Source: an uncultured Gemmatimonadales bacterium (lineage in GTDB: Bacteria > Gemmatimonadota > Gemmatimonadetes > Longimicrobiales > RSA9). Taken from it: a stretch of 64,000 nt of DNA. The notes under the pieces are model-generated. The model worked only from the letters and a program-made list of their open reading frames with translations. It was not told where the DNA came from and did no database searches. The stretch covers positions 416,001 through 480,000 of the forward strand of contig CAVUKA010000001.1 in NCBI GenBank assembly GCA_963741945.1. The letters are read 5' to 3'. The position numbers and the translations under genes are program-made. Below, piece by piece: positions 25,617 to 60,538 of the stretch (position 1 is its first letter; every line of letters starts with the position of its first letter).

Positions 25617-27206
25617 ATGGCCGAGGCCACCACGAGACAACGCGTGAAAATCCATGGCGAGACACACCCGGAAGCGGAGCGGGTGCTCACGCCCGAAGCG
25701 CTGTCGTTCGTGGCAGCGCTGCACGAGCGGTTCGATGACCGGCGTCGAAGTCTACTGAAGCGGCGACAGGAGCGGCAGGCCCGGCTCGTGGAGGGCGAGA
25801 TGCCGGACTTCCTGGAGGAAACGCGCGAGGTGCGGGAGTCGGACTGGCGGGTGGCCGACACGCCGGCCGACCTGGAGAAGCGGGTGGTGGAGATCACGGG
25901 CCCGGTGGACCGCAAGATGATGATCAACGCCCTGAACTCGGGCGCCGACGTGTTCATGGCGGACTTCGAGGACGCGCTGAGCCCCACGTGGGGCAACGTG
26001 GTGGCGGGGCAGGCCAACTGCCAGGATGCGGTCCGCGGCACCATCGAGTTCGAGAACCCGGACGGGAAGCGGTACGAGCTGAACGACGAGGTGGCCACGC
26101 TGCTCGTCCGCCCGCGCGGCTGGCACCTTCCGGAGAAGCACGTGGAGGTGGATGGTACGCCGATCTCGGCGAGTCTGTTCGATTTCGGGCTCTACTTCTT
26201 CCACAACGCCGAAGCGCTCCTGGAGCGGGGCAGCGGACCGTACTTCTACCTGCCGAAGCTCGAGAACCACCTGGAGGCCAGGCTGTGGAACGATGTCTTC
26301 CTCTTCGCGCAGGAGTCGCTGGACGTGCCGCGCGGGTCGATCCGCGCGACCGTGCTGGTGGAGAACATCCTGGCGGCGTTCGAGATGGACGAGATCCTGT
26401 ACGAGCTGCGGGAGCACATGGCCGGCCTCAACGCGGGTCGATGGGACTACATCTTCAGCGCGATCAAGAAGTTCCGGCACCGTGACGACTTCGTGCTCCC
26501 GGACCGGGGGCAGGTCACCATGACCGTGCCCTTCATGCGGGCGTATACGGATCTCCTCGTGCGCACCTGTCATCGCCGCGGTGCGCATGCCATGGGCGGG
26601 ATGGCGGCGTTCATTCCGAGCCGCGACGAGGAGGTGAACCGTCGCGCGTTCCAGGAAGTGCGCCAGGACAAGGTACGGGAGAGCCGGGACGGCTTCGACG
26701 GCACATGGATCGCCCATCCCGGTCTGGAGCCGGTCGCGCGGGAGGCGTTCGGGGAAGTGCTGGACGGCCGGCCGAACCAGAAGGACCGGCTGCGGGAGGA
26801 CGTGGAAGTGGGCGCGGCGGGGCTGCTGTCGATCCCTGAAACGCCGGGCGAGATCACGCGCGCGGGGATCGAGCAGAACGTGAGCGTGGCCCTTCAGTAC
26901 ATGGATGCCTGGCTGGGCGGCTGGGGCGCCGCGGCAATCAACAACCTGATGGAGGACGCGGCAACGGCGGAGATCTCGCGCTCGCAGCTGTGGCAGTGGC
27001 TGCACAGTGGCGCGGCGCTGGCGGATGGCAGCCGCATGACGGACGGGGTGTACCGGGAGGTCCGGGAGCAGGAGCTCCGGAGCCTGCGGGACGCCGGGAA
27101 GGACAACGGCCACCTGGACGAGGCGGCGGATCTGCTGGACGCGCTCGTCCTGGACGACGAATTCACCGGGTTCCTGACGCTGCCCGGTTACGAGCGACTC
27201 GACTGA
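25617..27206 (+). CDS. aceB: Malate synthase A
   Basis: [60 protein letters not shown]. Confidence 0.98.
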
Positions 27207-27222
27207 GAAGGAGGCGAGCCAC

Positions 27223-28578
27223 ATGCGGAACCGGAGCAAGTGGGGGGACGGCAGACCGGAGCGGACCGTTCCCGAATCGGAGGACCGGGCGAAAACGGAC
27301 TTCGCCGGGCAGATCGAGCAGCTCGAGCAGCGGTGGTCCGGGTCGCGCTACGGCGGGATCGAGCGGCCGTACGAGGCCAGGGACGTGGTGCGCCTGCGGG
27401 GTTCGGTGCGCGAGGACCAGACGCTGGCGCGGCTGGGCGCCGAGCGGCTGTGGGACCTGATCGACGGCGCGGACGAGCCGATCCGCACGTTCGGTGCGCT
27501 GACGGGGAACCAGGCCGTGCAGATGGTGCGGGCGGGGCTCAAGTCCATCTACCTGAGCGGCTGGCAGGTGGCCGGAGACATGAACCTCTCGCTGCAGACC
27601 TATCCGGACCAGAGCCTGTATCCCAGCAACAGTGGCCCCACGCTGGTGCGGCGGATCAACAACGCGCTGAAGCGGGCCGACCAGATCGAGTGGAGCGAGA
27701 ACGAGGGTGAGGTCCGGACGGAATGGATGGCGCCCATCGTCGCCGACGCGGAGGCCGGTTTCGGAGGTCCGCTCCACGCCCACGAGCTGGCCCGCGCCTA
27801 CATCGAGGCGGGGGCCTCCGGCATCCACTTCGAGGACCAGCTGGCGGCGGAGAAGAAGTGCGGGCACATGGGCGGGAAGGTGCTGGTTCCCACGTCGCAG
27901 TTCGAGCGGGTACTGAGCGCCGCGCGGCTGGCATCGGACGTCCTCGATGTGCCGACGGTCATCTTCGCCCGGACGGATGCCGAAGCGGCCACGCTGCTGA
28001 CCAGCGACGTGGACGAGCGGGACCGCGAGTTCCTCACGGGCGAGCGCACGCCGGAAGGGTACTTCCGCGTGCGGCCGGGGCTGCAATCAGCCATAGCGCG
28101 CGCCAGGGCGTATGCCCCGCTGGCGGACGTCCTCTGGTGCGAGACGAAAACGCCCAGCCTGGAGGAAGCGAAAGCGTTCGCTGACGCGGTGCACGAGGAT
28201 TTCCCGGGCAAGCCGCTGGCGTACAACTGCTCGCCATCGTTCAACTGGAAGCGGAACCTGACCGACTCCGAGATCGCGCGGTTCCAGACGGAGCTGGGCG
28301 CCATGGGATACCGCTATCAGTTCATCACGCTGGCGGGATGGCACCTGATCAACCTGGGCGCCTTCGAGCTGGCCCGGGAGTACGAGGCGAGTGAAATGGC
28401 CGCGTACGTCCAGGTGCAGGAGCGGGAGTTCCAGCTCGAAGAGCACGGCTACACGGCGGCGAAGCACCAGCGGGAGGTGGGCGGGAACTACTTCGACCTG
28501 GTCCTGAACACGCTCTCGCACGGCGAGGCGACCACGGGGTCAATGGCCGAGTCCACGGAAGCCGCCCAGTTCATCTGA
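27223..28578 (+). CDS. aceA: Isocitrate lyase
   Basis: [41 protein letters not shown] motifs. Confidence 0.98.
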
Positions 28579-28580
28579 TC

Positions 28581-28775
28581 ATGGCTGTGAGCGGTGGCAC
28601 CCGGACCTGGCGCCACGTGGAGCGCGGGCGTTGCGGCTTCTGCGGACAGGGCCACACGCGGGAGATCGTGTACCACTGCGTGGGGTGCGACCGCGAAGTC
28701 TGCGCCGTGTGCGTGCTGCTGGTGCGGGACACACACGAGGCGTTCTGCCCCGCGTGTGCGCGGGAGGAGCGCTAG
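28581..28775 (+). CDS. Small Cys-rich zinc-finger-like protein (4x CxxC)
   Basis: CGFC, CVGC, CAVC, CPAC in 64 aa; fills the gap between aceA and ku (2-bp and 1-bp spacers). Confidence 0.7.
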   Translation: MAVSGGTRTWRHVERGRCGFCGQGHTREIVYHCVGCDREVCAVCVLLVRDTHEAFCPACAREER

Positions 28776-28776
28776 C

Positions 28777-29559
28777 ATGGCGCGCGCGATCTGGAAGGGC
28801 GTGATCCGGCTCGGTGGCGTGGCCGTCCCGGTGAAGCTGTACTCGGCGGTGGAGGACCGGAGCGTGCACTTCCGGCTCCTGAGCGCGGCGACGCTCCGGC
28901 CGGTGAAGCAGCGGATGGTCAATCCGGCTACGGGCGACGTGGTGCCGTACGAGGAGGTGCGCTGGGGGCGCGAAGTGGAGGAGGGCGTGTTCGTGGTCCT
29001 GAGCGATGACGAGGTGGCGGAAGTGGAGCCCGAGCCGTCCCGCGACATCGAGATCACGCGCCTCGTCGCCCCGGAGCTGATCAACCACCAGTGGTACGAC
29101 CGCCCGTACCACCTCGGCCCCGATGATTCCGCGGAGGCGTATTTCGCCCTGGCCGAAGCCATGGAGGCGGGGCAGCGGGAGGGCGTGGCACGCTGGACCA
29201 TGCGGAAGAAGGAGTACGTGGGCGCCCTGCGGGTCGAGAACGGCCACCTGATGCTCATCACGCTGCGGCACGAGGGCGAAGTGATCCCGGTGTCCGCGCT
29301 CGAGCCCCCGCGCGGCCGGGAGCCGGACGCCCGTGAGCTGGACATGGCGGAGCAGCTGGTCTCCGCCCTTGAGGATGACTTCGATCCGGAAGCGTTCAGC
29401 GACGAGTACCGGGGCCGGGTGCTCGAGCTGGTGGAAGCGAAGGCGGAGGGGAAGACGGTGGAGTTCCGCCAGCCGTCGCGCCGGCGCGCGGCCGGGGACC
29501 TGGGGGCCACGCTGGAAGCCAGCATCGCCGCGGCGCGGAAGGAGCGGAAGAGTGCCTGA
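28777..29559 (+). CDS. ku: Non-homologous end-joining protein Ku (short form)
   Basis: MARAIWKG.I..G.V.VPVKLYSA, DRPYHL, FDPEAFSDEYR motifs. Confidence 0.92.
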   Translation: MARAIWKGVIRLGGVAVPVKLYSAVEDRSVHFRLLSAATLRPVKQRMVNPATGDVVPYEEVRWGREVEEGVFVVLSDDEVAEVEPEPSRDIEITRLVAPELINHQWYDRPYHLGPDDSAEAYFALAEAMEAGQREGVARWTMRKKEYVGALRVENGHLMLITLRHEGEVIPVSALEPPRGREPDARELDMAEQLVSALEDDFDPEAFSDEYRGRVLELVEAKAEGKTVEFRQPSRRRAAGDLGATLEASIAAARKERKSA

Positions 29560-30568
29560 CGCCATTGACGCCGCGGTCAGCGCCCGATCGATCTGGTCGG
29601 GCACCCTGAGCTTCGGGCTCGTGAGCATCCCCGTGAACCTCTTCAGCGCCAACCGCTCGCGTCACGTCTCGCTGCGCATGCTCGCCCCCGATGGCACGCC
29701 CCTCGTCCGCCGCTACTACGATCCCGAGACGGACGAGGAAGTCTCGCGGGACCGGATCGTCCGTGGCTACGAGGTCGAGAAGGACGAGTACGTGGTGGTC
29801 ACCGACGAGGAGCTGGAAGCGCTGGAGCCGGAGAAGAGCCGCGACATCGACCTGCGCCAGTTCGTCCCGCGCGACGACCTCGACCCCAAGTTCTTCGAGC
29901 GCGCCTACTTCCTGGCGCCCGCAGGCCAGTCCACGAAAGCGTACCGGCTGCTGGCGGCGGTCATGGAGCGAACTGGCCGGGCCGGGATCGCCACGTTCGT
30001 CATGCGCACCAGGGAGTACCTCGTCGCCATCCTGGCGGAGCGCGGAATCCTGCGGGCGGAGACGCTGCGCTTCCACGACGAGATCCGGGACGTGGACGCC
30101 ATCGGGCTCCCGGACAGGCCATCCCTGGAATCGAAGCGCGTGGACGAAGTGCGCGCGGCGATGAAGAAGCTGACGCGGAAGAGCCTGGACACCGGCGAGC
30201 TTCACGACAACTACTCGGACCGCCTGCTGGCGCTCGTGGAACGCAAGCGGAAGACGGGGCAGGACGTCGTGTCCGCTCCGCTTGCCGCCTACGAGCCGGA
30301 CGAGGACGAGGGCGCCGATGTCATCGACCTCATGGAGGTCCTCAAGCGGAGCCTGCGCGGCGCCGAGCCGTCGACCGCGCGCTCGGCCGCCGGCCGGAGC
30401 CGCACCGCAACCGGCGGCGGCGGTGGCGGGCGCGGCGGTGACGGGCGCGGCAGGCTGGCGGAGTTGACGAAGGCCGAGCTGTACGAGCGAGCCCAGCGGC
30501 TCGAGATCAGCGGCCGCAGCTCCATGAACAAGGGCGAGCTCATCGAGGCGATCCGCCGCAGCGCGTGA
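29552..30568 (+). CDS. ku: Non-homologous end-joining protein Ku with C-terminal Rho-N/HEH-like domain
   Basis: RSIWSGTLSFGLVSIPV, RGYEV, VIDLMEVLKRSL; tail TKAELYERAQRLEISGRSSMNKGELIEAI. Confidence 0.95.
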   Translation: MPDAIDAAVSARSIWSGTLSFGLVSIPVNLFSANRSRHVSLRMLAPDGTPLVRRYYDPETDEEVSRDRIVRGYEVEKDEYVVVTDEELEALEPEKSRDIDLRQFVPRDDLDPKFFERAYFLAPAGQSTKAYRLLAAVMERTGRAGIATFVMRTREYLVAILAERGILRAETLRFHDEIRDVDAIGLPDRPSLESKRVDEVRAAMKKLTRKSLDTGELHDNYSDRLLALVERKRKTGQDVVSAPLAAYEPDEDEGADVIDLMEVLKRSLRGAEPSTARSAAGRSRTATGGGGGGRGGDGRGRLAELTKAELYERAQRLEISGRSSMNKGELIEAIRRSA

Positions 30569-30957: not shown

Positions 30958-31689
30958 ATGAAGCAAGCGAAGTGGATGGCAGCGGGGATGGCGTTCGCCC
31001 TCATGCTCGGCGGTGCCGGCCCGGTGTCCGCACAGCAGGCGAACGGCAGCTGGTGGTCGTGGGCGCTGGGCGATGCACTGGGCGTGACGGGGCGCGGGCC
31101 CGGCTCCGTGGTGCTGGACCCGACGCGAAGCGGCAGGCGGGGCGACGACAAGGACGGCGCTGCGCGCTCCTCCGGCCGCACCGTCGGCGACATCATCTTC
31201 GGCCGCAGCGGCGGGGAACGGGGGAAGTCGCGCGACGGCCGTGACCGGGATCCGGCCGGACGCGGGCGGTCACAGGCGGCCGGGCGCGGGCCGGCGTTCT
31301 GCCGGAACGGAGTCGGTCACCCGACCAAGGGTCGGCAGTGGTGCGTGGACAAGGGATTCGGGCTGGGCGGAGGCGGGCTGCTGAACGGGGTATGGCGGGA
31401 GGACCGTGGCTGGGGCGGCGTGATCCTCGGCGGGCCGAGCACGCGCGTCCGAAGCGGGAGCGTGCTGGGCCAGGGCGGACTGAGGGACGTGCTGGGGAGC
31501 GTGATCCTCGGTCGGCTGCAGAACGAGCAGCGACGGCTGGGCGCCCGTGCCCCGCTGCAGGGGCGCTGGCTGAGAGAAGGAGCGCAATCTCTGGTGCTGC
31601 AGGTGCGGGCCGGGAACACGCCGGTGGCGGAGCTGACCGACCTGAACGGGGATGGCCGCGCCGACGTGGTGCTCGTGGCCCGGCCGTAG
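30958..31689 (+). CDS. Secreted Gly/Arg-rich hypothetical protein
   Basis: Signal peptide (..GAGPVSAQQ), GPAFCRNGVGHPTKGRQWC motif, C-terminal DLNGDGRAD Ca-loop-like motif. Confidence 0.7.
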   Translation: MKQAKWMAAGMAFALMLGGAGPVSAQQANGSWWSWALGDALGVTGRGPGSVVLDPTRSGRRGDDKDGAARSSGRTVGDIIFGRSGGERGKSRDGRDRDPAGRGRSQAAGRGPAFCRNGVGHPTKGRQWCVDKGFGLGGGGLLNGVWREDRGWGGVILGGPSTRVRSGSVLGQGGLRDVLGSVILGRLQNEQRRLGARAPLQGRWLREGAQSLVLQVRAGNTPVAELTDLNGDGRADVVLVARP

Positions 31690-31747
31690 ATGGAAGAGGG
31701 GTGGAGCGGGCGGCGGCCGCGGTGAGCGGCGGCCGCCCGCGGTCATC

Positions 31748-32347
31748 TCAGCGGCCTTCCCGGTCGGAATCGTTCAGGACGCGCGAAGCAAAGATGATCT
31801 TCTTGGCCAGGTCCAACATGCGCATGTTCCGGTTCTGACTGGTCTTCTGGAGCGTCCGGTACGCCTCCGCTTCGGACATGGAGCGGGTTTCCATCAGGAT
31901 CGCCTTGGCGCGCGAGATGATGCGCCGCTCCTCGAGCTTCCGGGCCAGCGCGTCTCTCTCCTCCTGAACCCGTTGCCAGTCGTCGAAGCGGGCACGGGCC
32001 ACGGCCAGGGCCGGGGCGAGGCTGGCGGGTTCCACGGGCTTCACCAGGTAGTGGAAAACGGGCGCGGCCGTGGCCTCCTCGACCGTGCGGCTGTCGCTGT
32101 ACGCGGAAAGCAGGAGAATGGGCATCCGGTGCTGCTCCCAGATCTCGCGGGCGGCTTCCGGCCCCGTCTTCCCGGGCATCCGGATGTCCAGGATGGCCAT
32201 GTCGGGGTGGTGCTCGGCGGCCAGCGTGACGGCCTCGCCACCATCGGCGGCGGTGGCCACGACGCGGTGGCCGAGGGCCTCGAGCTGGTGGCGGAGCGTG
32301 AGGTTGTGCAGGCTTTCGTCGTCCGCGATGAGGAAGCGCGTGGCCAT
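31748..32347 (-). CDS. ANTAR-domain response regulator (PdtaR/NasT-like)
   Basis: Receiver (IADD, LDIRMP, LSA, LVKP) plus ERRIISRAKAILM..SEAEAY..LQKTS ANTAR. Confidence 0.93.
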   Translation of the reverse strand: MATRFLIADDESLHNLTLRHQLEALGHRVVATAADGGEAVTLAAEHHPDMAILDIRMPGKTGPEAAREIWEQHRMPILLLSAYSDSRTVEEATAAPVFHYLVKPVEPASLAPALAVARARFDDWQRVQEERDALARKLEERRIISRAKAILMETRSMSEAEAYRTLQKTSQNRNMRMLDLAKKIIFASRVLNDSDREGR

Positions 32348-32469
32348 CAATGACCTCCAGAAGGACAGACTTGGTGGGGGTACGGCCGAAGCCGCGGTTG
32401 CGCGAAGGGTGACTGCAATGCTCGTGCTCGCGCGTCGCTGTGGGGCAGCCTGTGGAGCTGCCGGAGCGC

Positions 32470-32670
32470 TCAGCGGATGATGCCGAGCGGGATGAGCACC
32501 ACGTAACCGAGTGCGAGGAGGAGCGGCGCGGCCACCGTCGACGCCTGGGAGAGCAGCAGGAAACCCACGCCGATGGACAGCAGGCCGGACCCGATCAGGG
32601 CGTAGTTCACGGGGGTCCACCGTAGCGACGGCGGCCGGTTCTGCGGTGTCGATCGTTTGCTCTGGGCCAT
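32470..32670 (-). CDS. Small two-TM membrane protein (DUF3098-like)
   Basis: NYALIGSGLLSIGVGFLLL..APLLLALGYVVLIPLGI. Confidence 0.7.
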   Translation of the reverse strand: MAQSKRSTPQNRPPSLRWTPVNYALIGSGLLSIGVGFLLLSQASTVAAPLLLALGYVVLIPLGIIR

Positions 32671-32676
32671 GGCGCA

Positions 32677-32704
32677 AATGTAGTCGGACCCGGAGCGTGG
32701 TCAA
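32677..32704 (-). promoter_or_regulatory. sigma70 promoter giving a leaderless transcript
   Basis: TTGACC-N16-TACATT, 6 nt before ATG 32670; no RBS. Confidence 0.5.
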
Positions 32705-33600
32705 CCGGGGGAGTCCCAGTAGGCCGGATCGTCGGGCGGCTCGGTGGCCCTCAGGCGCGCGAGCTTCGCCCGATCCCGGCGCCGGCGCCGGCGTCCGACC
32801 AGCAGCAGGAGCAGCGCCACGAACAACCAGAAGACGAGGGAATGCGTGAGGATGAGCGGCCATCCGTAGGTGCGCTTGACGTATGCGCGCCAGTGTTCTT
32901 CGAACTGCCCCAGCGTCAGCCCATACGTGGAGCGGAACGCGCGATTGAAGTCCACGTCCTGGCGCCATCGGCGCAGAAAAATGGCGAGGCCGCGCTCTCC
33001 GCTCTCCTGCACGAGGTATCCGATGGCGCTGGCCGCGAGCAGGTAGGCGATCCGGGCGTCCTCCTCGGCCACGGGCCATTCCAGCGTCAGCGAGTCCAGC
33101 GGCGGCGCGCGACGCGTCAGGAATGCGACGCGGAGGCGCCACGCCGCATCGGCGCTCCACTCCCCCGCCGCCCATTGCGCGTACCCCTCCGTGACCCAGC
33201 GTGGCACGCGGGCGGGGCCCAGGAAGCGCTGGAGCGCCACGTGGGCGAGCTCGTGGCGAAGGGTGCGGTAGATCGTGTACGGCGGCGTACGCTCCCAGTC
33301 GAACGTGGGCAGCACGATCACGCCCGCGTCCGGCTCGGCCACGCCAGCGCCCCACTCCGGGACGCGGCCGCCGGTGAGGGAATCCCAGGCAGCGCGATCC
33401 GAGGCCAGGTAGACGTCGACGCCGGCGCTGTCGAGGATGTGGGGCGGGAGCGCCGGAAGCGGGGGAGCGGCGGCGACGTGCTCGGCTATCCTGCGGGCCA
33501 GAGCGCTCTGCCGCGGCTCGTAGTGGAGCCGGACCGGAGACGAGAGCAGGACCTGCTGCGCCAGGAGAAATGCCCCGAGGAGGAACGGGATCGCGTTCAC
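32701..33600 (-). CDS. Membrane-anchored zincin metallopeptidase (peptidase MA-like)
   Basis: Signal peptide, PEWGAGVA, HELAH, PRWVTEGYA; C-terminal TM plus poly-Arg. Confidence 0.85.
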   Translation of the reverse strand: MNAIPFLLGAFLLAQQVLLSSPVRLHYEPRQSALARRIAEHVAAAPPLPALPPHILDSAGVDVYLASDRAAWDSLTGGRVPEWGAGVAEPDAGVIVLPTFDWERTPPYTIYRTLRHELAHVALQRFLGPARVPRWVTEGYAQWAAGEWSADAAWRLRVAFLTRRAPPLDSLTLEWPVAEEDARIAYLLAASAIGYLVQESGERGLAIFLRRWRQDVDFNRAFRSTYGLTLGQFEEHWRAYVKRTYGWPLILTHSLVFWLFVALLLLLVGRRRRRRDRAKLARLRATEPPDDPAYWDSPG

Positions 33601-34058
33601 TCCGGCGCCGCGATGGCGTCCAGGCGGAGCAGTGCCGCGACACGGGGGCCGAGGCTGACGAGGCCCCGGACGTGCCGCGGATTCAGCCCCGTGAGCCACC
33701 GGGGCGGCCTCGTCACTGCGCCGTCGTCGACGATGACGACGCCCTCCACCACTTCGGCCGCCAGCGCCAGAACGAGCCCACCCGCGTCCACGACCACGGC
33801 CCTGGGCGCCGTACCCGGGGGATCGAGGCCGGGCAGCGGCGTGATCTCCATCTCCCCGGAGCGCGTCCGGGCGCGGCCGTCGTCGCCTGTGGGGGCAACC
33901 TCCCGGACGCTGGCTACGGGGGCGGCCAGCAGCGCGCCGGCGAGGCTCCAGAGGACCACTTCCCGACGGCCCTCCCCGGCCGCGACATCGCCCGGGAACG
34001 ACAGGGTCGGTCGATCCCCGAGGGGGGGCCGTGCGCCCCGATGCTCGCGCGCGGTCAC
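33597..34058 (-). CDS. CheW-like domain protein
   Basis: LLAAPVASVREV, LALAAEVVEGV, VRGLVSLG..VAALLRLDAI resemble the CheW fold; divergent. Confidence 0.65.
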   Translation of the reverse strand: MTAREHRGARPPLGDRPTLSFPGDVAAGEGRREVVLWSLAGALLAAPVASVREVAPTGDDGRARTRSGEMEITPLPGLDPPGTAPRAVVVDAGGLVLALAAEVVEGVVIVDDGAVTRPPRWLTGLNPRHVRGLVSLGPRVAALLRLDAIAAPE

Positions 34059-34540
34059 GTGCGCGCCTCCGGGAACACGCGGCGCAGCGCCGCCTCGAGG
34101 TCGCTCTCGAAGGAGGCGGCGTCGGACGCGCGCAGGGTCCCGCTCGAGGGCCGCATCCGCTCCGCCGCCTCGATGAAGCGCTCGGCGAAGAGCCGGACCA
34201 GCCCGAGCGTGGAGCCCCGATCAAAGACGGCCACCAGCACGAGCGGCGCACCGGCCACTTCCAGGGGGGCGAAGAAGAGCTCTCTGGTCTCGCCCACGTG
34301 ATGGATGTGCGTCCAGCCGGCCCCGCCCGTCAGCTCCGCGAGAGCGCGCGCGGAGGAGTGGGCGGAAGCGGCGAGGGAGGCCACGGCGGCGAGGTCGAGG
34401 CCGCGGTCGAAGCCGTGGTACGCCAGAACCTGCCCGCTGCGGTTCACGAGCATGGCCGTGCGGACGCGGGCCTCCCGCGCGAACTCCCGCAGGTCTCTGC
34501 GCAGCTGGCGCCCGAGTGCGTCGAGTCCGGGCGCCCTCAC
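34055..34540 (-). CDS. Roadblock/LC7 protein, MglB-like
   Basis: LVNRSGQVLA, AVASLAAS..ALAELTG, VAVFDRGSTLGLVRL and acidic C-terminal helix resemble Myxococcus MglB. Confidence 0.8.
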   Translation of the reverse strand: MRAPGLDALGRQLRRDLREFAREARVRTAMLVNRSGQVLAYHGFDRGLDLAAVASLAASAHSSARALAELTGGAGWTHIHHVGETRELFFAPLEVAGAPLVLVAVFDRGSTLGLVRLFAERFIEAAERMRPSSGTLRASDAASFESDLEAALRRVFPEART

Positions 34541-34887
34541 GCAGACAGCTCCCGGGCAGCGTGGAGCGCGTGGCTGCGCGCCATTCCCACTCCCGCGCCG
34601 GCCTCGGTGGCCACCACAACCACCAGCGCGCCCGCCGCGGCCACCAGGAGCATCCCACCCGCGGACTCGAGCTGCACCACGCGGGCGCGCCCGATCCCGG
34701 CCGCGTCGGCCGCGTCGGACGTGCGGCTGAGGAGCGATGCCGCCAGCGCCGCCAGTGCGTCCTCGGGCACGCCCGCCAGCACCTCGGAGGCCACGGGCGT
34801 CCCCGTCGCCGCGTCGACCACGAGGGCCGCCCGGACGCCTGGGAGGCGACCGAGGCGACGCGCGACGCCCCGCGCCGGGGCGCTCAC
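34537..34887 (-). CDS. Roadblock/LC7 domain protein
   Basis: PGVRAALVVDAATGTPVAS, DALAALAASL, GALVVVVA pattern. Confidence 0.75.
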   Translation of the reverse strand: MSAPARGVARRLGRLPGVRAALVVDAATGTPVASEVLAGVPEDALAALAASLLSRTSDAADAAGIGRARVVQLESAGGMLLVAAAGALVVVVATEAGAGVGMARSHALHAARELSA

Positions 34888-35696
34888 GCGCCGTCCGCGG
34901 TGAGGGCGCGGGCCAGGCGTTGCGCCCGGTCCGCGGTGCGCACGACCCACCCTTCCGGGGTGCCTGGCCGCGTGAGGACGATCAGCGCGCGGTCCCGGCC
35001 GTGAGGTGCCACGTGGGCGCGCGCCCGGTCGCAGTCAACGAGGGCGCCGGTCCACGGTCCCATGCCCGTCAGCTCCGCCGTGCGGCTCGCTTCCGCCACG
35101 ACCGAAGTGGCGAACGCGCTGATCAGCTGCGGGTCGCCCGCTGCCGTGGGGACCGCGCCCGCCAGCACCAGCCCGTTGCGGTCGAGCACCAGCGCGCCGA
35201 GGAACGGCGCTTCCGCAGTCAGCGGCTCGAAGACGCGCTCGGGGTCGATCGCGGGGCCGGACGAGCGGTCCGGCTGCGCCGTCGCCCCGGCGCCCTGCCG
35301 CTCCGTGAGCACCTGCAGCGCCTGCCGCACCGCGGGGTCGCCGGGCCTGGCGTCGGCCGCCGCCACGAGGTGGGGCCGGGCGTCTTCGAAGCGCCGCTCC
35401 TCGAGGGCCAGGAAGCCGAGCCCGCGGTGCGCGGCGAAGCTGGTCGGGTCGAGGGACAGGAGGGCGGACCATTCATCGCCCGCGCGGGCGTGGTCGCCGG
35501 CCTCGAGGTGGAGCAGGGCGAGGAGCTCGCGGGCCTCGACGTGGTCCGGGTGGCGCTCCAGGCCGCGCCGTACCACGTCGCGCGCTGCGTCAGCGCGGCC
35601 GTTTCGCCGGAACGCGCGGGCGAGCGATACGAAGCAGCGAGCCCCGGGGTCCCGGGCCACTTCCCGACTCCAGCGCTCCACGTCTCGGTCGCTCAT
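34884..35696 (-). CDS. TPR plus C-terminal Roadblock/LC7 domain protein
   Basis: DPGARCFVSLA TPR start, LSLDP..AHRGLG; C-terminal GALVLDRNGLVLAG. Confidence 0.75.
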   Translation of the reverse strand: MSDRDVERWSREVARDPGARCFVSLARAFRRNGRADAARDVVRRGLERHPDHVEARELLALLHLEAGDHARAGDEWSALLSLDPTSFAAHRGLGFLALEERRFEDARPHLVAAADARPGDPAVRQALQVLTERQGAGATAQPDRSSGPAIDPERVFEPLTAEAPFLGALVLDRNGLVLAGAVPTAAGDPQLISAFATSVVAEASRTAELTGMGPWTGALVDCDRARAHVAPHGRDRALIVLTRPGTPEGWVVRTADRAQRLARALTADGA

Positions 35697-35722
35697 CCGG
35701 TCGTCCCGGGTCCGCCGGTGAA

Positions 35723-36688
35723 TCAGCCCCCACTCGAACCGCGCGCCCATTCGGCCGCCGCCGCCAGATCCGGCGGAAGAGGCGCGCGCAGGTCCATGCG
35801 CTCGTGGGTGCGCGGGTGGTCGAACACGAGGCGCTCCGCGTGCAGGAATTGCCGCGGCACCCGCCGCTCCAGCTCGCGGGCCCAGGGCAGGCCCTGGCCA
35901 CTGATCCGACGGGCGCCTCCGCCGCCGTACAGCGGATCGGCCACGACGGGGTGACCGATGTGGGCGAGGTGGACGCGGATCTGGTGCGTCCGCCCCGTCT
36001 CCAGCCTCGCCCGCAGCACGTCTGCGGCCACCCAGCGCTCCACGCGCTCGAAGTGCGTCACGGCGTGCCGGCCCGCCTGCGTGACCGTGAGGCGTTTGCG
36101 GTCCCGCGTGGACCGGCCCACCGGCGCATCCACGGTCTGCCGGTCGTCCTCCAGGTGCCCCCAGACCACCGTCAGGTAGCTCCGATGGATATCGCGGCGC
36201 TTGAGTGCCGCGGCCAGGCGGCGGTGCGCCCGGTCGTGCTTGGCCACGATCAGGAGGCCGGACGTGTCCATGTCCAGGCGGTGCACGATGCCCGGCCGCT
36301 TGACCCCGCCGATCCCCGACAGGTCCTGGACGTGGTGCAGCAGCGCGTTCACCAGCGTCCCGCCCCGATGCCCCGGCGCCGGGTGCACCACCAGCCCCGC
36401 CGGCTTGTTCACCACCAGCAGGTCCCGGTCCTCGAACACGATGTCCAGCGGGATGTCCTCCGGCTCCATCCCGGACGGCTCGGGCGGCGGGATGGTGAGC
36501 TCCACCACGTCGCCTGCCGTCACGCGCTCGCTCTTCCGCGGGACCTCCCCGTTTAGCAGCACCTGCCCTTCCCCGATCAGCTGGGCGATGCGACTGCGCG
36601 AAAGCTCCGCCAGACGCCCGGCCAGCCAGGCGTCGAGCCGCTCCCCCTCCGCGGCTTCCGGAATCTCGAGACGACGGCGGTCAGCCAC
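35723..36688 (-). CDS. rluD: RluA/RluD family pseudouridine synthase with S4 domain
   Basis: ERLDAWLA S4, NKPAGLVVHP, RPGIVHRLDMDTSG, GRTHQIRVH. Confidence 0.93.
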   Translation of the reverse strand: MADRRRLEIPEAAEGERLDAWLAGRLAELSRSRIAQLIGEGQVLLNGEVPRKSERVTAGDVVELTIPPPEPSGMEPEDIPLDIVFEDRDLLVVNKPAGLVVHPAPGHRGGTLVNALLHHVQDLSGIGGVKRPGIVHRLDMDTSGLLIVAKHDRAHRRLAAALKRRDIHRSYLTVVWGHLEDDRQTVDAPVGRSTRDRKRLTVTQAGRHAVTHFERVERWVAADVLRARLETGRTHQIRVHLAHIGHPVVADPLYGGGGARRISGQGLPWARELERRVPRQFLHAERLVFDHPRTHERMDLRAPLPPDLAAAAEWARGSSGG

Positions 36689-37217
36689 CGCCCTCCCGAC
36701 GTCTGCGCGGGCGCTGTTCTTCCTGCCAGAGGGAGAGCGCGAGGAAGATGGCGCCCGTGGTCACGGCAATGTCGGCCACATTGAACACGGGCCAGCGGAG
36801 GTCGCCCACTCCGACATCGAGGAAATCCACGACACCGGCATGGGAGCGGACGCGATCGATGAGGTTGCCGACTGCGCCTCCGCAGATGAGGGCGATGGCG
36901 GCGAGGCGTATGCGGTCGCGGGCGGGGGTGGCCCAGTACATGGCGGCGAGGGCGGCGAGGGCGATGAGGGAGAGGACGAGGAAGACGGGTCGGGAGTAGG
37001 CGCCGAGATGGATGCCGAAGGCCGCGCCCGGGTTCTGGATGTAGGTGAGCCGAAGGTAGGAACCCACGACGTCGACCTGGTCGTAGAGCGGCATGTAGGC
37101 CTGGACCATCAGCTTGGTGGTGACGTCCAGGAGCACCACCAGGAGGGTGACGCCCACGAACATCCGCACCTTCCCGGCCGTCCAGGAACGCCCCTCGCTC
37201 TCGACGTTCATCTCCAT
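36681..37217 (-). CDS. lspA: Lipoprotein signal peptidase II
   Basis: DVTTK, NPGAAFG, GAVGNLIDR, VVDF, WPVFNVAD motifs. Confidence 0.96.
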   Translation of the reverse strand: MEMNVESEGRSWTAGKVRMFVGVTLLVVLLDVTTKLMVQAYMPLYDQVDVVGSYLRLTYIQNPGAAFGIHLGAYSRPVFLVLSLIALAALAAMYWATPARDRIRLAAIALICGGAVGNLIDRVRSHAGVVDFLDVGVGDLRWPVFNVADIAVTTGAIFLALSLWQEEQRPRRRREGGG

Positions 37218-37218
37218 G

Positions 37219-37595
37219 TCACCCACGGCGTCCACTTCCCGACTCCTCCTCCCGTTTGCACTGGATGCACAGATCGGTGTGCGGCAGCGCCTCGAGGCGC
37301 TCGAACCCGATGTCCTCCTTGCACCTGCGGCACGCGCCATAGTCCTCGGGCTCGTGCAGCAGCCGGTCGAGCGCCCGGTCCACCTCCACGAGCCGCCGCC
37401 CCTCCTCGCTGGCCATGAGGAACGCGTTCTCGCGCTCGGTGAGCGCCGACGCCGCCTCGGCCATGTGCTGGGAAAACCCGGACACGGCGCGGTCGTCCAT
37501 CTCCTGGCCGAAGCGATGCAGGCGCCGGACGAGCTTGGCGCGCTCCCGCTCCAGGAGCCGCCGCAGCGCTTCACGCCTGTCGTGCGACAGTGGCA

Positions 37596-37596
<1 letters not shown>
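37219..37596 (-). CDS. TraR/DksA family C4 zinc-finger protein
   Basis: Coiled coil plus YGACRRC..I..ERLEALP.T.LCIQC. Confidence 0.9.
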
Positions 37597-40738
<3,142 letters not shown>

Positions 40739-40742
<4 letters not shown>

Positions 40743-41476
40743 TCGGTCCGCTGCTCCTCCACCAGCGACGACAGCCAGTCGTCCCCGCCGTCCGCCTCTC
40801 CAACCTCGCGGCTGGCCTCGCCTTCCTCCCCCGCCCCCTCGCCGGAGGACGCCGCCACATCGGCTTCGTCCGCCATCGCCCCGTCAGCCGCCCCCCCGTC
40901 CGGCACCTCCGCCTCCGGCGACGACGGCGCTGTCGCGTCCGGCGATCCCCCACCCTCCTCGTCGGACAATGGGCCACCGGAGAGCATCAGCGGCTCCCTC
41001 TCCTCGAACCGCAGCTCGAGGGCGTCCTCGATCACGTTCAGCTCCGACAGCCCCCGCTCCAGCAGGTTGTGGAACGACCTCACGAGCTGGGCGCGCCGCG
41101 CCCGGACCTGGCGCAGCGCATCCTCCTCCGCCGCCAGCTTGCGCGCCGACTCCTGCCGGGCCGCCTCCGCCGCGGCCCGCGCTTCCCGGACGATGAGCTC
41201 CGCTTCCCGGTCCGCGTTCGAGCGCGCCTCCCCGCGCAGCCGCTCGGCGGCGAGCAGCGCATCCGAGAGCATGCGCTCCTTCTCCCGGAAGGCCGCGAGC
41301 TCCGCCCCGGTCCGCTCCAGCGACTCGGAGAGCGCCATGTTCTCCTTGACGAGCTCCTCCATGCGGTCCGCGGCCAGGTCGAGGAAGTCGTTGACGAGCT
41401 CGGCATCATAGCCCCGGAACGCGCGCCGGAAATCACCCTTCTTGTGGCGGACCTCGAGTGGCGTGAGATCGATCAT
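40739..41476 (-). CDS. divIVA: DivIVA domain protein
   Basis: LTPLEV..F.RAFRGYD..LVNDFLD N-terminal motif plus coiled coil and acidic tail. Confidence 0.9.
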
Positions 41477-42174
41477 GGCTGTCCCCTCTCTCCAAACAGG
41501 ACCGTACCGAGCCGCACCAACGTGGCGCCCTCCTCGATCGCGATCTCGAAGTCGTTGCTCATGCCCATGGACAGCTCCCCGCCCCGGATCACTTCCGGCG
41601 CCTGGCGGCGGCACGCCTCCAGCAGATCGCGGGCACGGCGGAACGTGTCGTGAAGGACCGTTTCGTCCCCGGTCCAGGGCGCCATGGTCATGAGCCCGTC
41701 CAGATGGAGGTTACGGAGCCCCGACAGCGGCTCCAGCGCCTCCAGCGCCGCCTCGCGGTCGAACCCGCCCTTGCTGTCCTCGCCCGAAACGTTCACCTGG
41801 AGCAGTCCACGCACCACCGTCCCCGCGCGCCCGCCTTCACCATCGAGCGTGCGCGCGAGTCGGAGGGAGTCCACCGAGTGGATGCGGTCGAACAGGGGAA
41901 TGGCGCTCCGGGACTTGTTCCTCTGGAGATGCCCGATCAGGTGCCATTCCGCGGCGTCTCGTCCCACGAAGGCGACTTTCTGCTCCAGCTCCTGGACCCG
42001 GTTTTCACCGAGCATGCGAAGGCCGGCGCGCACGGCCGCGGCCGCCGCTTCCGGCTCGTGCCCCTTCGTGACCGCCACGAGCCCGACGTCGTCCCGCCGC
42101 CCCACCCGCTCCATGGCCGCGCGAATCCGCTCGCGGACCTCAGGCACCGTCTCCTTCAGCCGTTCGTCCCACAT
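41473..42174 (-). CDS. yggS: PLP homeostasis protein YggS
   Basis: LVAVTK, GENRVQE, WHLIGHLQRNK, LSMGMSNDF, VRLGTVLFG. Confidence 0.96.
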   Translation of the reverse strand: MWDERLKETVPEVRERIRAAMERVGRRDDVGLVAVTKGHEPEAAAAAVRAGLRMLGENRVQELEQKVAFVGRDAAEWHLIGHLQRNKSRSAIPLFDRIHSVDSLRLARTLDGEGGRAGTVVRGLLQVNVSGEDSKGGFDREAALEALEPLSGLRNLHLDGLMTMAPWTGDETVLHDTFRRARDLLEACRRQAPEVIRGGELSMGMSNDFEIAIEEGATLVRLGTVLFGERGQP

Positions 42175-57800: not shown

Positions 57801-58919
57801 CTACCGCAGGAGCTGCAGGACCGCCTGCGGCGCCTGGTTGGCCTGCGCCAGCATGGCGGTACCGGCCTGCTGGAGGATCTGAGCGCGGCTGAGCTCCGTC
57901 ATCTCCTGCGCCATGTCGGCGTCCCGGATGGTGGACTCGGCAGCCGCCGTGTTCTCGATCGTGGCCTGCACGTTCTGGAGCGCGTAGTCGATCCGGTTCT
58001 GCGAAGCGCCGATCGTGCCCACTGCGGTGTTCAGCGTTTCGATCGCCGTGTCGAGGTTCGTGAGCGCCGTGCGCGCGCCCGCAGTCGTGCTGATGTCGTC
58101 CCCATTGATGCCCAGAGTGGTGGAGTCGACGTCGATCGCCGTCACGGACACCAGGTCGTCGCCGCTATACTGACCGCTGGAGCTGACCATGAAGTCACCG
58201 CTCGCAGTGGCGGAGACGACCAGGTCACCATCCGCCGCATTCCCGGCCGCCGTATAGTCGGCCGTGAGGTCCAGCGTGATCCCGAAGGTGGAGAATTCCA
58301 CGGACTGCGCGCCGTCCGAGCCGACTGCGATCGTCTGGCTGGCGGTTCCCTTGGAGACGGTGATCTCGCCGGCAACGGAGTTGTCCACGGCGTAGGTGCC
58401 GGCCGCCGTGCCGTTGATGCTGGCACCGTATACCGTGGTGCTCGCGGCCAGGACCGTGCTGTTCGCCGCGTCCGTATCGACGGCGGCGCCGAAGCCGCCC
58501 GCCAGCAGCGTCTGGCCGTTGAACGTGGTCGTGCTCACGATGCGGTCGAGCTCGTTCTTCAGCGACGTGAACTCGGCGTTCAGCTGCGTCTTGCTCGCCC
58601 CGCCGTCGGCGCCCGAGCTCGCGGAGTTCGACTGCGTGGCCAGCTCCTTCATCCGCTGGAGGATGCTCGTCATCTGCGTCGTCGCGCCTTCCATCACCTG
58701 GAGCATCGAGTTGGCCTGCTCGGCGTTCCGCGAGGCCTGCTGGAGCGAGCGAATGTCCGCGTGCAGCTTGTTGGCGATCCCCAGGCCCGCGGCGTCATCC
58801 GATGCCTTGTTGATCCGGAGACCCGACGAAAGGCGCCCGATCTGACGCGCTACGATCTTGTCCGTCTGCCCCAGGATCCGCTGGGTGTTGAGGGCCGAGA
58901 CGTTGGTGTTGATCCGCAT
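57801..58919 (-). CDS. fliC: Flagellin
   Basis: MRINTNVSAL, LSSGLRINKASDDAAG, C-terminal GASQNR..IRDADMA..QAGTAMLAQAN. Confidence 0.98.
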   Translation of the reverse strand: MRINTNVSALNTQRILGQTDKIVARQIGRLSSGLRINKASDDAAGLGIANKLHADIRSLQQASRNAEQANSMLQVMEGATTQMTSILQRMKELATQSNSASSGADGGASKTQLNAEFTSLKNELDRIVSTTTFNGQTLLAGGFGAAVDTDAANSTVLAASTTVYGASINGTAAGTYAVDNSVAGEITVSKGTASQTIAVGSDGAQSVEFSTFGITLDLTADYTAAGNAADGDLVVSATASGDFMVSSSGQYSGDDLVSVTAIDVDSTTLGINGDDISTTAGARTALTNLDTAIETLNTAVGTIGASQNRIDYALQNVQATIENTAAAESTIRDADMAQEMTELSRAQILQQAGTAMLAQANQAPQAVLQLLR

Positions 58920-59000
58920 GGTTGTTTCTCCATCCCTTGAGAGTGAACTCGGAGCGTCCTTGCTCCTCTTTTCCATCCGTCCGGCCATTTCCGACCGGCT
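58920..59000 (-). promoter_or_regulatory. Putative CsrA-binding GGA hairpins in the fliC leader
   Basis: CCGGTC-GGAAAT-GGCCGG, GGAGC-AAGGAC-GCTCC, and TCTC-AAGGGATG-GAGA over the RBS. Confidence 0.6.
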
Positions 59001-59008
59001 GAGTGTGG

Positions 59009-59035
59009 TTATCGGCGGAGGGCCCGGGGACTTGA
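59009..59035 (-). promoter_or_regulatory. sigma28 promoter (fliC)
   Basis: TCAA-N15-GCCGATAA. Confidence 0.85.
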
Positions 59036-59264
59036 GCGGACGGGGCTCGTTGTGCGGCCGGGCACCCTCTGGCGGCGGGGTCGCAGTCGCGGGCGGCTCT
59101 GCGTCATCGGCATCGGCGTGCGGGTCGGCGTTGCCTACGGGAAAGGCCGGGCGCGCCAGACGGAGCACGGGTGACGGACACGGGGGGAGGCGGGGAGGGG
59201 CTGGGGCTTGCGGCATCGCAGAGGGGCTCGCCCTGCGGCCTCGCAGGGGCGGTGCGCAGCACGA

Positions 59265-59300
59265 TTGCACTTTGTATGTTCGTGCTATAGCATTGTAGCA
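59265..59300 (+). promoter_or_regulatory. sigma70 promoter, leaderless, with palindromic operator-like site
   Basis: TTGCAC-N17-TAGCAT-N6-ATG; TGCTATA-GCAT-TGTAGCA inverted repeat in an AT-rich patch. Confidence 0.6.
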
Positions 59301-60538
59301 TGAAAATACTACGCGAGAACCCGTTCCGGATCGGTGGGGTGGTGGAGCCGCCGTTCTTCACGGACCGTGCGGAGGAGGTGGGGCGGATCCGGGAGGCGCT
59401 GGAGCGGGCGCCGGCGAAGCTGCTGGTGTACGGGGAGCGTCGGATGGGGAAGACGTCGGCGCTGCACGTGGCGCGGCTGGCGGTGGAGCGGGCGGGTGGG
59501 CGGGTGGTGTTCGCGGACCTGTCGACGGTGTCGTCGCCGACGGACATGGCGAACCGTGTGCTGGCCGCGGCGTCGCGCGGCCCGGGTCGGAGCTGGGGTG
59601 ACTTCGTGAGCGACGTGGCGGGTCGTCTGCGGGTGCGGCTGGAGCTGGTGACGGATCCGGCGACGGGGGTAGTGATCCCGTCGCTTGAAGCGGGGCTGCG
59701 GTCGCGGGAGATGGGGGAGCAGTACGACTCGTTCGTGGCGGTGCTGGACGCGCTGGAAGCGGTGGCGGAGTCGCGTGACGCGAAGCTGGGGGTGATCCTG
59801 GACGAGTTCCAGGAGATCCACCGGTTCGGCGGCGAGGACGCGGAGTGGCGGCTGCGTGGGGCGATCCAGCACCATCGTGGGATCGGGTACGTGCTGGCGG
59901 GGTCGGACGCGTCGCTGATCCGGTCGATGCTGGGGAGCGGGCGGGCGTTTTACGAGATGTTCGACCCGCTGCATTTCGGGCCCATGGACGCCGGGCATTT
60001 CGCGACGTGGGTGGATGACCGGCTGTCCGGCGCGGGTCTCCCGTGCCCCGGTCTGGGCGCGCGGGCAGTGACGGTGGCGGGGCCGAGGACGAGGGACGTG
60101 GTGCGGCTGGGGCGGGCGAGCTACGAGGCGGCGCGGTCGTGGGGCGGGGCTCGCGCGGGCGGCGCGGGGGGTTCAGCGGCCGGGCCAGACTGCGATCCCG
60201 CGGCGCTGGCGCGGGCGGGGCTGGAGCGGGTGGTGGCGGAGGAGGATGACCGGATGCGGGTGGTGTGGGACAACCTTTCGGAGCACCAGCAGAACGTGCT
60301 GCGTGCGGTGGCATGGGACCACGACGGCCTGTCCACCGCGGCCACGGTTCGGCGCTTCGGGCTCGGCTACGGCGGGACGGCGAGGAACGCGGCGCTGGGC
60401 GTTGCCAAGCGCGGTCTGCTGCGGACGGCCGAAAGCCGCTCCGGCTTCGCGTTCGACAGCCCGTTCGCGCGGGCGTGGGTGGTGCTCCACGCCCTTCCCG
60501 ACGCCGGCATCCTCCTGCCCATCGACCACCCGTTCTGA
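59300..60538 (+). CDS. AAA/P-loop ATPase (archaeal ATPase-like) with C-terminal winged-helix-like region
   Basis: NPF..G..F.DR..E start, Walker A GERRMGKT, Walker B VILDEFQ, LAGS sensor. Confidence 0.85.
   Translation: MKILRENPFRIGGVVEPPFFTDRAEEVGRIREALERAPAKLLVYGERRMGKTSALHVARLAVERAGGRVVFADLSTVSSPTDMANRVLAAASRGPGRSWGDFVSDVAGRLRVRLELVTDPATGVVIPSLEAGLRSREMGEQYDSFVAVLDALEAVAESRDAKLGVILDEFQEIHRFGGEDAEWRLRGAIQHHRGIGYVLAGSDASLIRSMLGSGRAFYEMFDPLHFGPMDAGHFATWVDDRLSGAGLPCPGLGARAVTVAGPRTRDVVRLGRASYEAARSWGGARAGGAGGSAAGPDCDPAALARAGLERVVAEEDDRMRVVWDNLSEHQQNVLRAVAWDHDGLSTAATVRRFGLGYGGTARNAALGVAKRGLLRTAESRSGFAFDSPFARAWVVLHALPDAGILLPIDHPF

Follow-up and report, generated by a model that had tools for sequence, protein, structure and literature searches.

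Analysis of a 64,000-nucleotide stretch of DNA (hereafter the window) from an uncultured Gemmatimonadales bacterium, corresponding to positions 416001 to 480000 of contig C1 in a metagenome bin of 4.09 Mb, 8 contigs and 96.7% completeness, identifies four consecutive genes downstream of rluD (g1 to g4, encoding three Roadblock proteins and one CheW-like domain) that are best explained as the deletion remnant of a larger operon, orphaned under relaxed but not absent selection, beside an independent gene for a membrane peptidase (g5). We assign this explanation a probability of roughly 0.7. Most Gemmatimonadota carry an operon of roughly 19 genes of chemotaxis and cell polarity between rluD and the membrane peptidase, and the locus described here (Table 1) is the most reduced version, among the loci examined, of this phylum-wide operon. 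A preliminary description, made from the sequence of the window alone, had proposed that the five genes form a new signalling scaffold connected with DivIVA and possibly regulating a GTPase encoded elsewhere; its domain identities and the GTPase elsewhere are borne out, but the stand-alone scaffold, the DivIVA link and the membership of the peptidase are not. In what follows, G000 is the genome studied, G001 is its congener, and C1, C3, C5 and so on are contigs of G000.

The parent operon in related genomes

Relatives were surveyed by a six-frame search of 40 genomes (41 with G000; tallies over the 41 include the unpublished genomes G016, G017, G020 and G026, on which no other result depends) and with a profile of the third Roadblock protein (Roadblock 3, g3 in G000), which found 249 relatives in a genome collection; the best 80 of these 249 loci were mapped with 21 reference proteins. 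The 80 loci were picked via Roadblock 3, so loci without Roadblock 3 cannot be in the set. All of them come from bins labelled Gemmatimonadota, Longimicrobiales, Gemmatimonadales or alike; g1 is matched in 74 of the 80, g2 in 75 and rluD in 39, and an MglA-like GTPase gene directly follows Roadblock 3 in every one. No GTPase gene directly follows g3 in G000, the sole MglA of which sits beside another Roadblock gene on contig C3. Among the 41 genomes, g3 is present in 30. A strong g3 match (E <= 1e-29) shares a contig with the best g5 match in 15 relatives, and in 14 of these the two are 3.2 to 10.9 kb apart; only G001 has a spacing (0.43 kb) like that of G000 (0.46 kb). The five genes proposed as a conserved, self-standing scaffold without a GTPase are therefore not found together across the phylum: only the congener resembles G000.

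In relatives, the cassette begins after rluD with genes for CheW, CheY, CheA, CheC, a TPR protein of 800 to 900 amino acids, a DUF4388/PATAN protein with TPR (about 380 amino acids), a TPR-Roadblock protein, a Roadblock protein and an MglB-like Roadblock protein, and continues with genes for the MglA-like GTPase (about 203 amino acids), a protein of about 600 amino acids that carries two DnaA ATPase domains, a second DUF4388/PATAN protein with TPR (about 540 amino acids), CheR, CheD, CheB and a double CheW protein (345 amino acids). Beyond the cassette come genes for a Peptidase_MA_2 protein and a small membrane protein. This order was established from gene maps of eight loci, their upstream flanks, and Pfam searches of 13 genes of the related genome G012 (DUF4388 twice, Robl_LC7 three times, Arf/Ras, Bac_DnaA, CheR, CheD, CheB, CheW twice and Peptidase_MA_2), and it holds across the 80 loci wherever contigs reach. 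The full order is common to bins labelled Longimicrobiales and bins labelled Gemmatimonadales; some relatives also lack the CheW-CheY-CheA-CheC and CheR-CheD-CheB arms. A search of the literature on MglA, MglB and Roadblock proteins with PATAN/DUF4388 or Gemmatimonadetes found no description of this operon. The locus of G000 has the same position, from rluD to the peptidase and small membrane gene, and the same order of Roadblock genes (TPR-Roadblock, Roadblock, MglB-like Roadblock).

The domain content of g1 to g4, as first described, is upheld by family searches. The product of g1 has TPR families above the Pfam cut-off at approximately residues 16 to 140 (e.g. TPR_14, 44.1 bits) and a C-terminal Roadblock/LC7 domain at residues 155 to 241 (Robl_LC7, PF03259; 26.6 bits against a cut-off of 23); g2 and g3 score 33.9 and 41.9 bits on the same family. 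The MglB-like character of g3 comes from a profile built with 24 orthologues, which matches the solved MglB chains of Myxococcus xanthus and Thermus thermophilus (E 1.5e-18 to 7e-12); on the NCBIfam MglB model g3 scores 47 bits, far under the cut-off of 200. Matches of g2 to solved Roadblock proteins (E 0.005) and to CvnB5 (E 0.18) are weak. The CheW assignment of g4 is marginal (PF01584, 24.5 bits against a cut-off of 23.5), with residues 82 to 150 covering only profile positions 66 to 134 of 138.

From sequence and gene order, g1, g2 and g3 are assigned as orthologues of the three Roadblock genes of the parent operon and g4 as an orthologue of its CheW gene; g1, which is 46% identical to its G012 counterpart, corresponds to the TPR-Roadblock gene, and g4 appears to be the leftover of the double-CheW gene, which in G012 contains two CheW stretches (Pfam CheW, 153 bits). 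Clear homologues of g4 among the 41 genomes are limited to G001 (E 6e-38) and the relative G021 (E 3e-14). Eight of the 41 genomes match at E <= 0.001 in all, and the five other matches (E 3e-5 to 8e-4) fall inside longer frames, in which only the C-terminal half of the domain is aligned. A word-based protein search with g4 found only 3 other proteins among 5.8 billion clusters.

Loss of two blocks of genes

When 13 proteins of G012 were compared with the whole of G000 by tblastn, the only orthologues found at the locus were the three Roadblock genes and the peptidase. The cassette of G000 lacks the first CheW (CheW0), CheY, CheA, CheC, the long TPR protein, both PATAN proteins, the MglA-like GTPase, the DnaA-like ATPase, CheR, CheD, CheB and one CheW domain. 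Counterparts of the cassette GTPase, the DnaA-like ATPase, the PATAN proteins and the long TPR protein were not encountered elsewhere in the genome: the GTPase query finds only the canonical MglA (56% identity), the DnaA-like query finds only DnaA, and tblastn with the PATAN and long TPR proteins returns only TPR-repeat matches. Queries with CheR, CheB and CheD find matches of 31 to 41% identity on contigs 1, 5 and 7, the strongest of which are beside a CheA match (C1) or a match to a methyl-accepting chemotaxis protein (MCP; C5). G000 and G001 have no DUF4388 matches, versus 2 to 4 in each of G012, G013 and G021, and they have one MglA-family gene each, versus two each in the same three relatives. 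The loss of the GTPase, the DnaA-like ATPase and the PATAN proteins is genome-wide. Two blocks are missing at the locus: the first, from the first CheW through the first PATAN gene, at the 26-nucleotide spacer after rluD; and the second, which begins with the GTPase and ends with the first CheW domain, where g3 and g4 overlap. A search for DNA-level remnants at the g3/g4 junction against loci L008, L007 and L046 found only coding matches.

Both junctions, rluD to TPR and Roadblock 3 to CheW, are shared by G001, which was assembled independently. G001 has undergone a further in-frame deletion that fuses the TPR region to Roadblock 3 and removes g2 and the Roadblock domain of g1 (L007 6339-7244); g2 has no tblastn match in L007, the locus of G001. 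The nearest relatives by identity of rluD and the peptidase (L046, L042, L060 and L052, the last being the locus of G021) are without Che genes but retain the GTPase and one or more PATAN genes; the DnaA-like gene is missing as well from L046 and reduced to a fragment in G021. Concatenated rluD and peptidase sequences gave a tree (33 rows; quick IQ-TREE search with Shimodaira-Hasegawa-like approximate likelihood ratio test [SH-aLRT] support) in which G000 and G001 group together (100). Their sister is L046 (99), where the GTPase and PATAN persist, and the full-operon locus L015 joins next (98). Four genomes of a sister family, f2, in which the peptidase gene directly follows rluD with no cassette between them, group beside genomes with the full operon (support 83). 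Between rluD and the peptidase gene of one f2 genome (G037; L097 11937-12077), 47 encoded residues match the N-terminus of the DnaA-like ATPase at 60% identity, an apparent relic of complete deletion of the cassette. These tree positions, together with the empty slots of f2 and the relic, indicate that the cassette has been trimmed or lost several times. Judged from these sequences, the small gene set of G000 is derived.

The nesting of G000 and G001 within clades that carry the GTPase and PATAN genes, the full order common to Longimicrobiales- and Gemmatimonadales-labelled bins, and the DnaA-like relic at an empty slot of f2 also contradict the converse proposition, that a small Roadblock-CheW-peptidase set is primitive and that the GTPase, PATAN, DnaA-like and Che genes were added in other lineages. 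Parsimony of size, and the existence of several lineages with intermediate gene sets, are all that favour such an ancestral core; the accelerated evolution of g1 to g4 and the single domain of g4, versus two in relatives, count further against it, and we reject it as highly improbable. Even less credible is a mis-join in the metagenome bin: although the bin has 8 contigs and the contigs of one public sequencing run span neither junction, the independent assembly of G001 has the same two joins, the genes meet cleanly at each junction, where start and stop codons are coupled, and the absence of a second MglA and of DUF4388 throughout both G000 and G001 fits real loss.

Relaxed constraint on the remaining genes

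Divergence between G000 and G001 was measured as the ratio of non-synonymous to synonymous substitution rates (dN/dS) by the Nei-Gojobori method with a codon bootstrap, on this single pair of genomes. The flanking genes are similar at the protein level (ileS 85%, lspA 90%, rluD 86%, g5 86%, the 66-residue gene downstream of g5 89%, the ANTAR regulator 81% and dksA 72% identity); the leftovers are less so (TPR part of g1 59%, g3 46%, g4 60%). For the TPR part of g1, g3 and g4 taken together, dN/dS is 0.46 (95% bootstrap interval 0.36-0.59), versus 0.15 (0.13-0.18) for six flanking genes, 0.11 (0.08-0.17) for g5 and 0.08 for the 66-residue gene, and the protein sequences of the g1 to g4 leftovers change 4 to 5 times faster than those of the flanking genes.

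Six pairs of loci with intact operons served as a baseline. In these pairs, dN/dS is 0.17, 0.06, 0.04, 0.23, 0.03 and 0.35 for Roadblock 3; 0.13 to 0.29 for the TPR-Roadblock gene; 0.09 to 0.16 in four pairs for Roadblock 2, with 0.57 (at a dS of 0.09) and 0.43 in the other two; and 0.11 to 0.16 in five pairs for the double CheW gene, with 1.27 in the sixth, which is a poor alignment of 83 columns. The dN of Roadblock 3 relative to that of rluD is 0.24 to 1.45 in the six intact pairs versus 4.7 in G000 and G001. Of the alignment columns that are at least 90% conserved, G000 keeps 33 of 40 in Roadblock 3, 34 of 42 in TPR-Roadblock and 17 of 19 in Roadblock 2, compared with 59 of 62 in the peptidase and 99 of 102 in rluD. 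The accelerated dN/dS and the loss of conserved columns thus place the leftover genes under clearly relaxed constraint, but not under none.

Several observations weigh against decay. All four leftover frames are open and their GTGA couplings are intact. Their dN/dS is significantly below 1 (bootstrap upper bound 0.59 for the pooled genes and 0.86 for g3 alone), so there has been some purifying selection since the deletions, unlike in a pure pseudogene. The Roadblock genes of G000 keep 81 to 89% of the conserved columns, within the range of intact orthologues (minimum 78-79%), and one intact pair has a Roadblock 2 dN/dS as high as 0.57 at its low dS, while another reaches 0.35 to 0.43. The fusion in G001 is in frame, which could mean that its product is still used. 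With dS at 0.6 to 0.9 and about 90% G+C at third positions, simple Nei-Gojobori estimates are rough, and all of the genomes are metagenome bins in which the gene starts are the analyst's calls.

Partner genes elsewhere in the genome

A genome-wide scan of G000 for Robl_LC7 adds a fourth match, on contig C3, to the three found in the window. The fourth adjoins a 192-residue MglA that is approximately 80% identical to proteins named gliding-motility protein MglA, and this is the only MglA-family gene of G000 (C3:268947-269528). A search with Pfam Ras gave only a weak match of 21.8 bits in a frame of 459 residues on contig 8; MglA itself escaped this search and was identified from the gene content next to the fourth Roadblock match. 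This canonical pair, mglB (196 residues, Roadblock) and mglA, lies beside recR, ybaB and dnaX (L002 6951-8135, equivalent to approximately 268.9-270.1 kb of C3 in G000), and its MglA is very conserved across the phylum (about 80% identity). The GTPase that had been anticipated outside the window thus exists, although as part of the canonical mglB-mglA pair. Family scans of G000 find no MglA, CheA or MCP within the window, in agreement with the preliminary description; the only match to the CheA dimerization domain is at C1:518990, and MCP matches are at C1:525-531 kb and C5:216 kb.

The region C1:519-531 kb contains both the only CheA match of G000 and three MCP matches. Flagellin_N matches occur in the window at 58494-58913 on the minus strand, inside an open reading frame of 519 amino acids (57801-59357), and at C1:509879-510286; among five genomes checked (G000, G001, G021, G012 and G013), flagellin is in G000 only. 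A flagellar and chemotaxis region may be specific to this species within its family. Motility machinery as the cause of cassette loss is unsupported: PilM is in all five genomes, and flagellin is absent from G001 though the deletions are shared.

Origin and possible function of g1 to g4

Gene order and the tree suggest that, in the lineage leading to this genus, one deletion took the first CheW through the first PATAN gene, and that the genes from the GTPase to the first CheW domain, both included, were lost in one or more further deletions. What would have remained are three Roadblock genes and a single CheW domain, in frame and coupled by GTGA overlaps, and they are probably co-transcribed with ileS, lspA and rluD. 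In the intact operon, g3 would act as the GTPase-activating, MglB-type partner of the GTPase encoded next to it; g1 and g2 would be accessory Roadblock subunits; and the chemosensory pathway would feed the MglA/MglB-type switch, with the PATAN and TPR proteins as scaffolds. In G000, where the kinase, response regulator, methylation enzymes, GTPase and scaffolds of the cassette are gone, the Roadblock proteins and the CheW domain would lack cognate partners. These four genes would then be dispensable and on their way out, with at most a weak residual role, and we consider it probable that they are orphans in decay whose function is residual at most.

An alternative is that the Roadblock proteins, with or without the CheW domain, have been kept to regulate the canonical MglA/MglB of contig C3, as an additional GTPase-activating protein or as an accessory resembling MglC or RomY. 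The canonical mglB-mglA pair is present, and its MglA is 56% identical to the lost GTPase of the G012-type cassette and approximately 80% conserved across the phylum; g3 belongs to a clearly MglB-like family; and the open frames, intact GTGA couplings, dN/dS of 0.36 to 0.59 and retention of 81 to 89% of conserved columns also speak for this reading. We nevertheless regard re-use as unlikely: the non-synonymous change, at 4 to 5 times that of the flanks, exceeds every intact-operon pair tested; the loss of g2 and of the g1 Roadblock domain from G001 means that the Roadblock triple is not maintained even within the genus; neither the 80 loci nor the 40 relatives include another genome with such a set lacking its own GTPase; and a canonical MglB is already beside MglA. 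A complex prediction for two copies of g3 with the canonical MglA, run without controls, gave scores of 0.10 and 0.07 against a mark of 0.32 and weighs neither way.

A more specific form, which we find still more doubtful, is that the canonical switch has captured the Roadblock trio and that the rapid change of the latter represents adaptation to a new partner rather than decay. If so, the locus would be a natural example of the rewiring of GTPase regulators, and the fusion of TPR to Roadblock 3 in G001 would represent this new regulator in streamlined form.

A Roadblock cluster without a GTPase need not be annotated as a new system, given that gene order here shows what deletion has left behind. 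This genus, its sister lineages and family f2 together form a natural deletion series of the parent operon, in which separately losable parts can be recognized: the two Che arms; the DnaA-like ATPase; and then the GTPase and PATAN proteins. The same deletions in two congeners also provide a dated example of what happens to regulators after loss of their target, namely a 4- to 5-fold rise in rate with dN/dS still below 1.

An independent membrane peptidase

The last of the five overlapping genes, g5, encodes a match to Peptidase_MA_2 (PF13485, 48.9 bits against a cut-off of 32.4) with the motif HELAH (H116-E117-xx-H120) and a downstream glutamate, E138. These four residues, like a set of tryptophan and proline positions, are invariant in 19 orthologues of g5. 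A structure model of g5 (predicted local distance difference test 87, predicted template-modelling [TM] score 0.78) is matched by Foldseek to the catalytic domains of M30 lugdulysin (7bb8), M9 collagenase and M1 aminopeptidase (E 5e-5 to 7e-4, TM 0.35-0.54, identity 10-19%). By family match, HEXXH motif with downstream glutamate, and fold, g5 is a gluzincin. The hydrophobic N-terminus and a hydrophobic stretch at residues 249 to 268, followed by RRRRRR, suggest a zinc peptidase that faces out of the cytoplasm and is anchored in the membrane through its C-terminal helix. Beyond this helix and the arginine-rich stretch, the tail (window 32704-32790) has the family consensus RATEPPDxPA and then a near-constant W; this conserved tail may serve for docking to a partner in the cytoplasm.

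The peptidase is more widespread than the cassette. By six-frame search g5 is present in 37 of the 41 genomes, including G000; in family f2, 6 of 8 genomes have a g5 match and none of the 8 has a g3 match. All four f2 loci have the order ileS-rluD-peptidase, with the peptidase directly after rluD, and the gene for a 66-residue protein follows the peptidase in two of the four, as it does in 37 of the 80 related loci. Thus g5 and the 66-residue gene are a constrained unit, independent of the cassette, that stays beside rluD when the cassette is wholly gone. The preliminary description counted the peptidase as a member of the module; it is better described, with its small partner, as part of the housekeeping flank of the chromosome than of the signalling cassette.

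Locus layout and neighbouring genes

The features of the locus are listed in Table 1; gene starts were picked by the analyst from open frames and codon bias. As had been noted at the outset, the five genes are joined by 4-bp overlaps; each of the four is a GTGA in which the GTG start of one gene runs into the TGA stop of the preceding one, and g1, with its ATG at 35696, begins 26 nucleotides after the stop of rluD at 35723.

Table 1. Coordinates (window numbering) of the genes and deletion sites of the locus.
Feature	Position	Strand	Basis
g1, TPR + Roadblock, 270 amino acids	34884..35696	-	open frame, Pfam
g2, single Roadblock/LC7 domain, 116 amino acids	34537..34887	-	open frame, Pfam
g3, MglB-type Roadblock protein, 161 amino acids	34055..34540	-	open frame, Pfam, profile against solved MglB
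g4, one CheW-like domain, 153 amino acids	33597..34058	-	open frame, Pfam
g5, membrane-anchored gluzincin (predicted), 299 amino acids	32701..33600	-	open frame, Pfam, fold model
Small membrane protein downstream of g5, 66 amino acids	32470..32670	-	no Pfam family
rluD, left flank of cassette slot	35723..36688	-	Pfam PseudoU_synth_2 + S4
rluD-g1 spacer, 26 nucleotides, site of deletion 1 (putative)	35697..35722	-	gene order versus relatives
g3/g4 GTGA overlap, site of deletion 2 (putative)	34055..34058	-	gene order versus relatives

Upstream, the run of genes is ftsH-folP-cdaA-exbB-exbD-exbD-tonB-yggS-divIVA-ileS-dksA/traR-type-lspA-rluD. The segment yggS-divIVA-ileS-lspA-rluD is a common arrangement of housekeeping genes outside this phylum, and it precedes the full operon in relatives too; the proximity of divIVA is accordingly ordinary, and a functional connection of DivIVA with the Roadblock genes is rejected. 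In G012, two tandem lspA-like open reading frames lie between ileS and rluD (L011 5449-6591), where G000 has the dksA/traR-type zinc-finger gene and one lspA. Downstream of g5 are the 66-residue membrane open reading frame, which matches no Pfam family, and then an ANTAR response regulator.

Farther along, an open reading frame on the plus strand (30958-31689) encodes 243 residues rich in glycine and arginine, with a hydrophobic N-terminus and no Pfam family; a similar one is found in G001 (L007 9528-10298). Two tandem Ku-like open reading frames (28594-30568, plus strand) come after malate synthase-like and isocitrate lyase-like ones (25617-28578), all named from their translations, and the same Ku pair sits downstream of the locus in G021.

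A scan of 31500-41800 gave one promoter-like site, at 32704-32677 just past g5, and weak, intragenic terminator-like sites; neither was used as evidence. No RNA sequencing run is listed as containing the stretch, and one DNA run contains 46% of the words sampled from it. Its contigs leave 34017-35045 uncovered within 32400-36800 and bridge only the g4/g5 boundary among the gene boundaries, and they therefore give no independent check of the two deletion junctions.

Comparison with known systems

The peptidase shares HEXXH with downstream glutamate and the catalytic fold with gluzincins of families M30 (lugdulysin, 7bb8), M9 (clostridial collagenase) and M1 (aminopeptidase N type), to which it is only 10 to 19% identical; at 299 residues it is much smaller, and it ends in a membrane helix followed by a conserved tail.

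Three systems invite comparison with the parent operon and its remnant. The conservons of Streptomyces (kinase CvnA, Roadblock protein CvnB, CvnC and GTPase CvnD), as outlined in Wuichet and Sogaard-Andersen 2014 (PMC4316618), resemble the parent operon in that a kinase-type sensor, a Roadblock protein and a small GTPase are encoded together, but they have a GTPase of another group and another gene set, and such a GTPase and kinase are no longer at the locus of G000. The same account, which cites Makarova et al. 2006, reports that MglA/MglB genes occasionally adjoin genes of PATAN-domain proteins, for MglA of group 1 and group 5, and counts Gemmatimonadetes among the phyla with group 1 MglA. 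The parent operon shares this association, with two DUF4388/PATAN proteins flanking its Roadblock-GTPase core; the passages of PMC4316618 consulted on these neighbourhoods make no mention of Che genes, a DnaA-like ATPase, a triple Roadblock or a peptidase, and G000 is without any PATAN domain.

The polarity module of M. xanthus, which to the extent of the sources consulted comprises MglA, its GTPase-activating protein MglB, the Roadblock paralogue MglC and RomR/RomX/RomY and is steered by Frz, shares with the locus an MglB-type Roadblock protein and several Roadblock paralogues. As far as those sources describe it, M. xanthus has dispersed genes and a GTPase, whereas at the locus of G000 the cognate GTPase appears to have been deleted and g3 reaches 47 of the 200 bits set for NCBIfam MglB. 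The link from the Frz chemosensory pathway to an MglA-type GTPase in M. xanthus, so far as it is documented there, may by analogy resemble the arrangement of the parent Che-MglA-PATAN-DnaA-like operon of Gemmatimonadota, which occupies the same slot as the locus of G000, after ileS-lspA-rluD and before the peptidase and small membrane gene.

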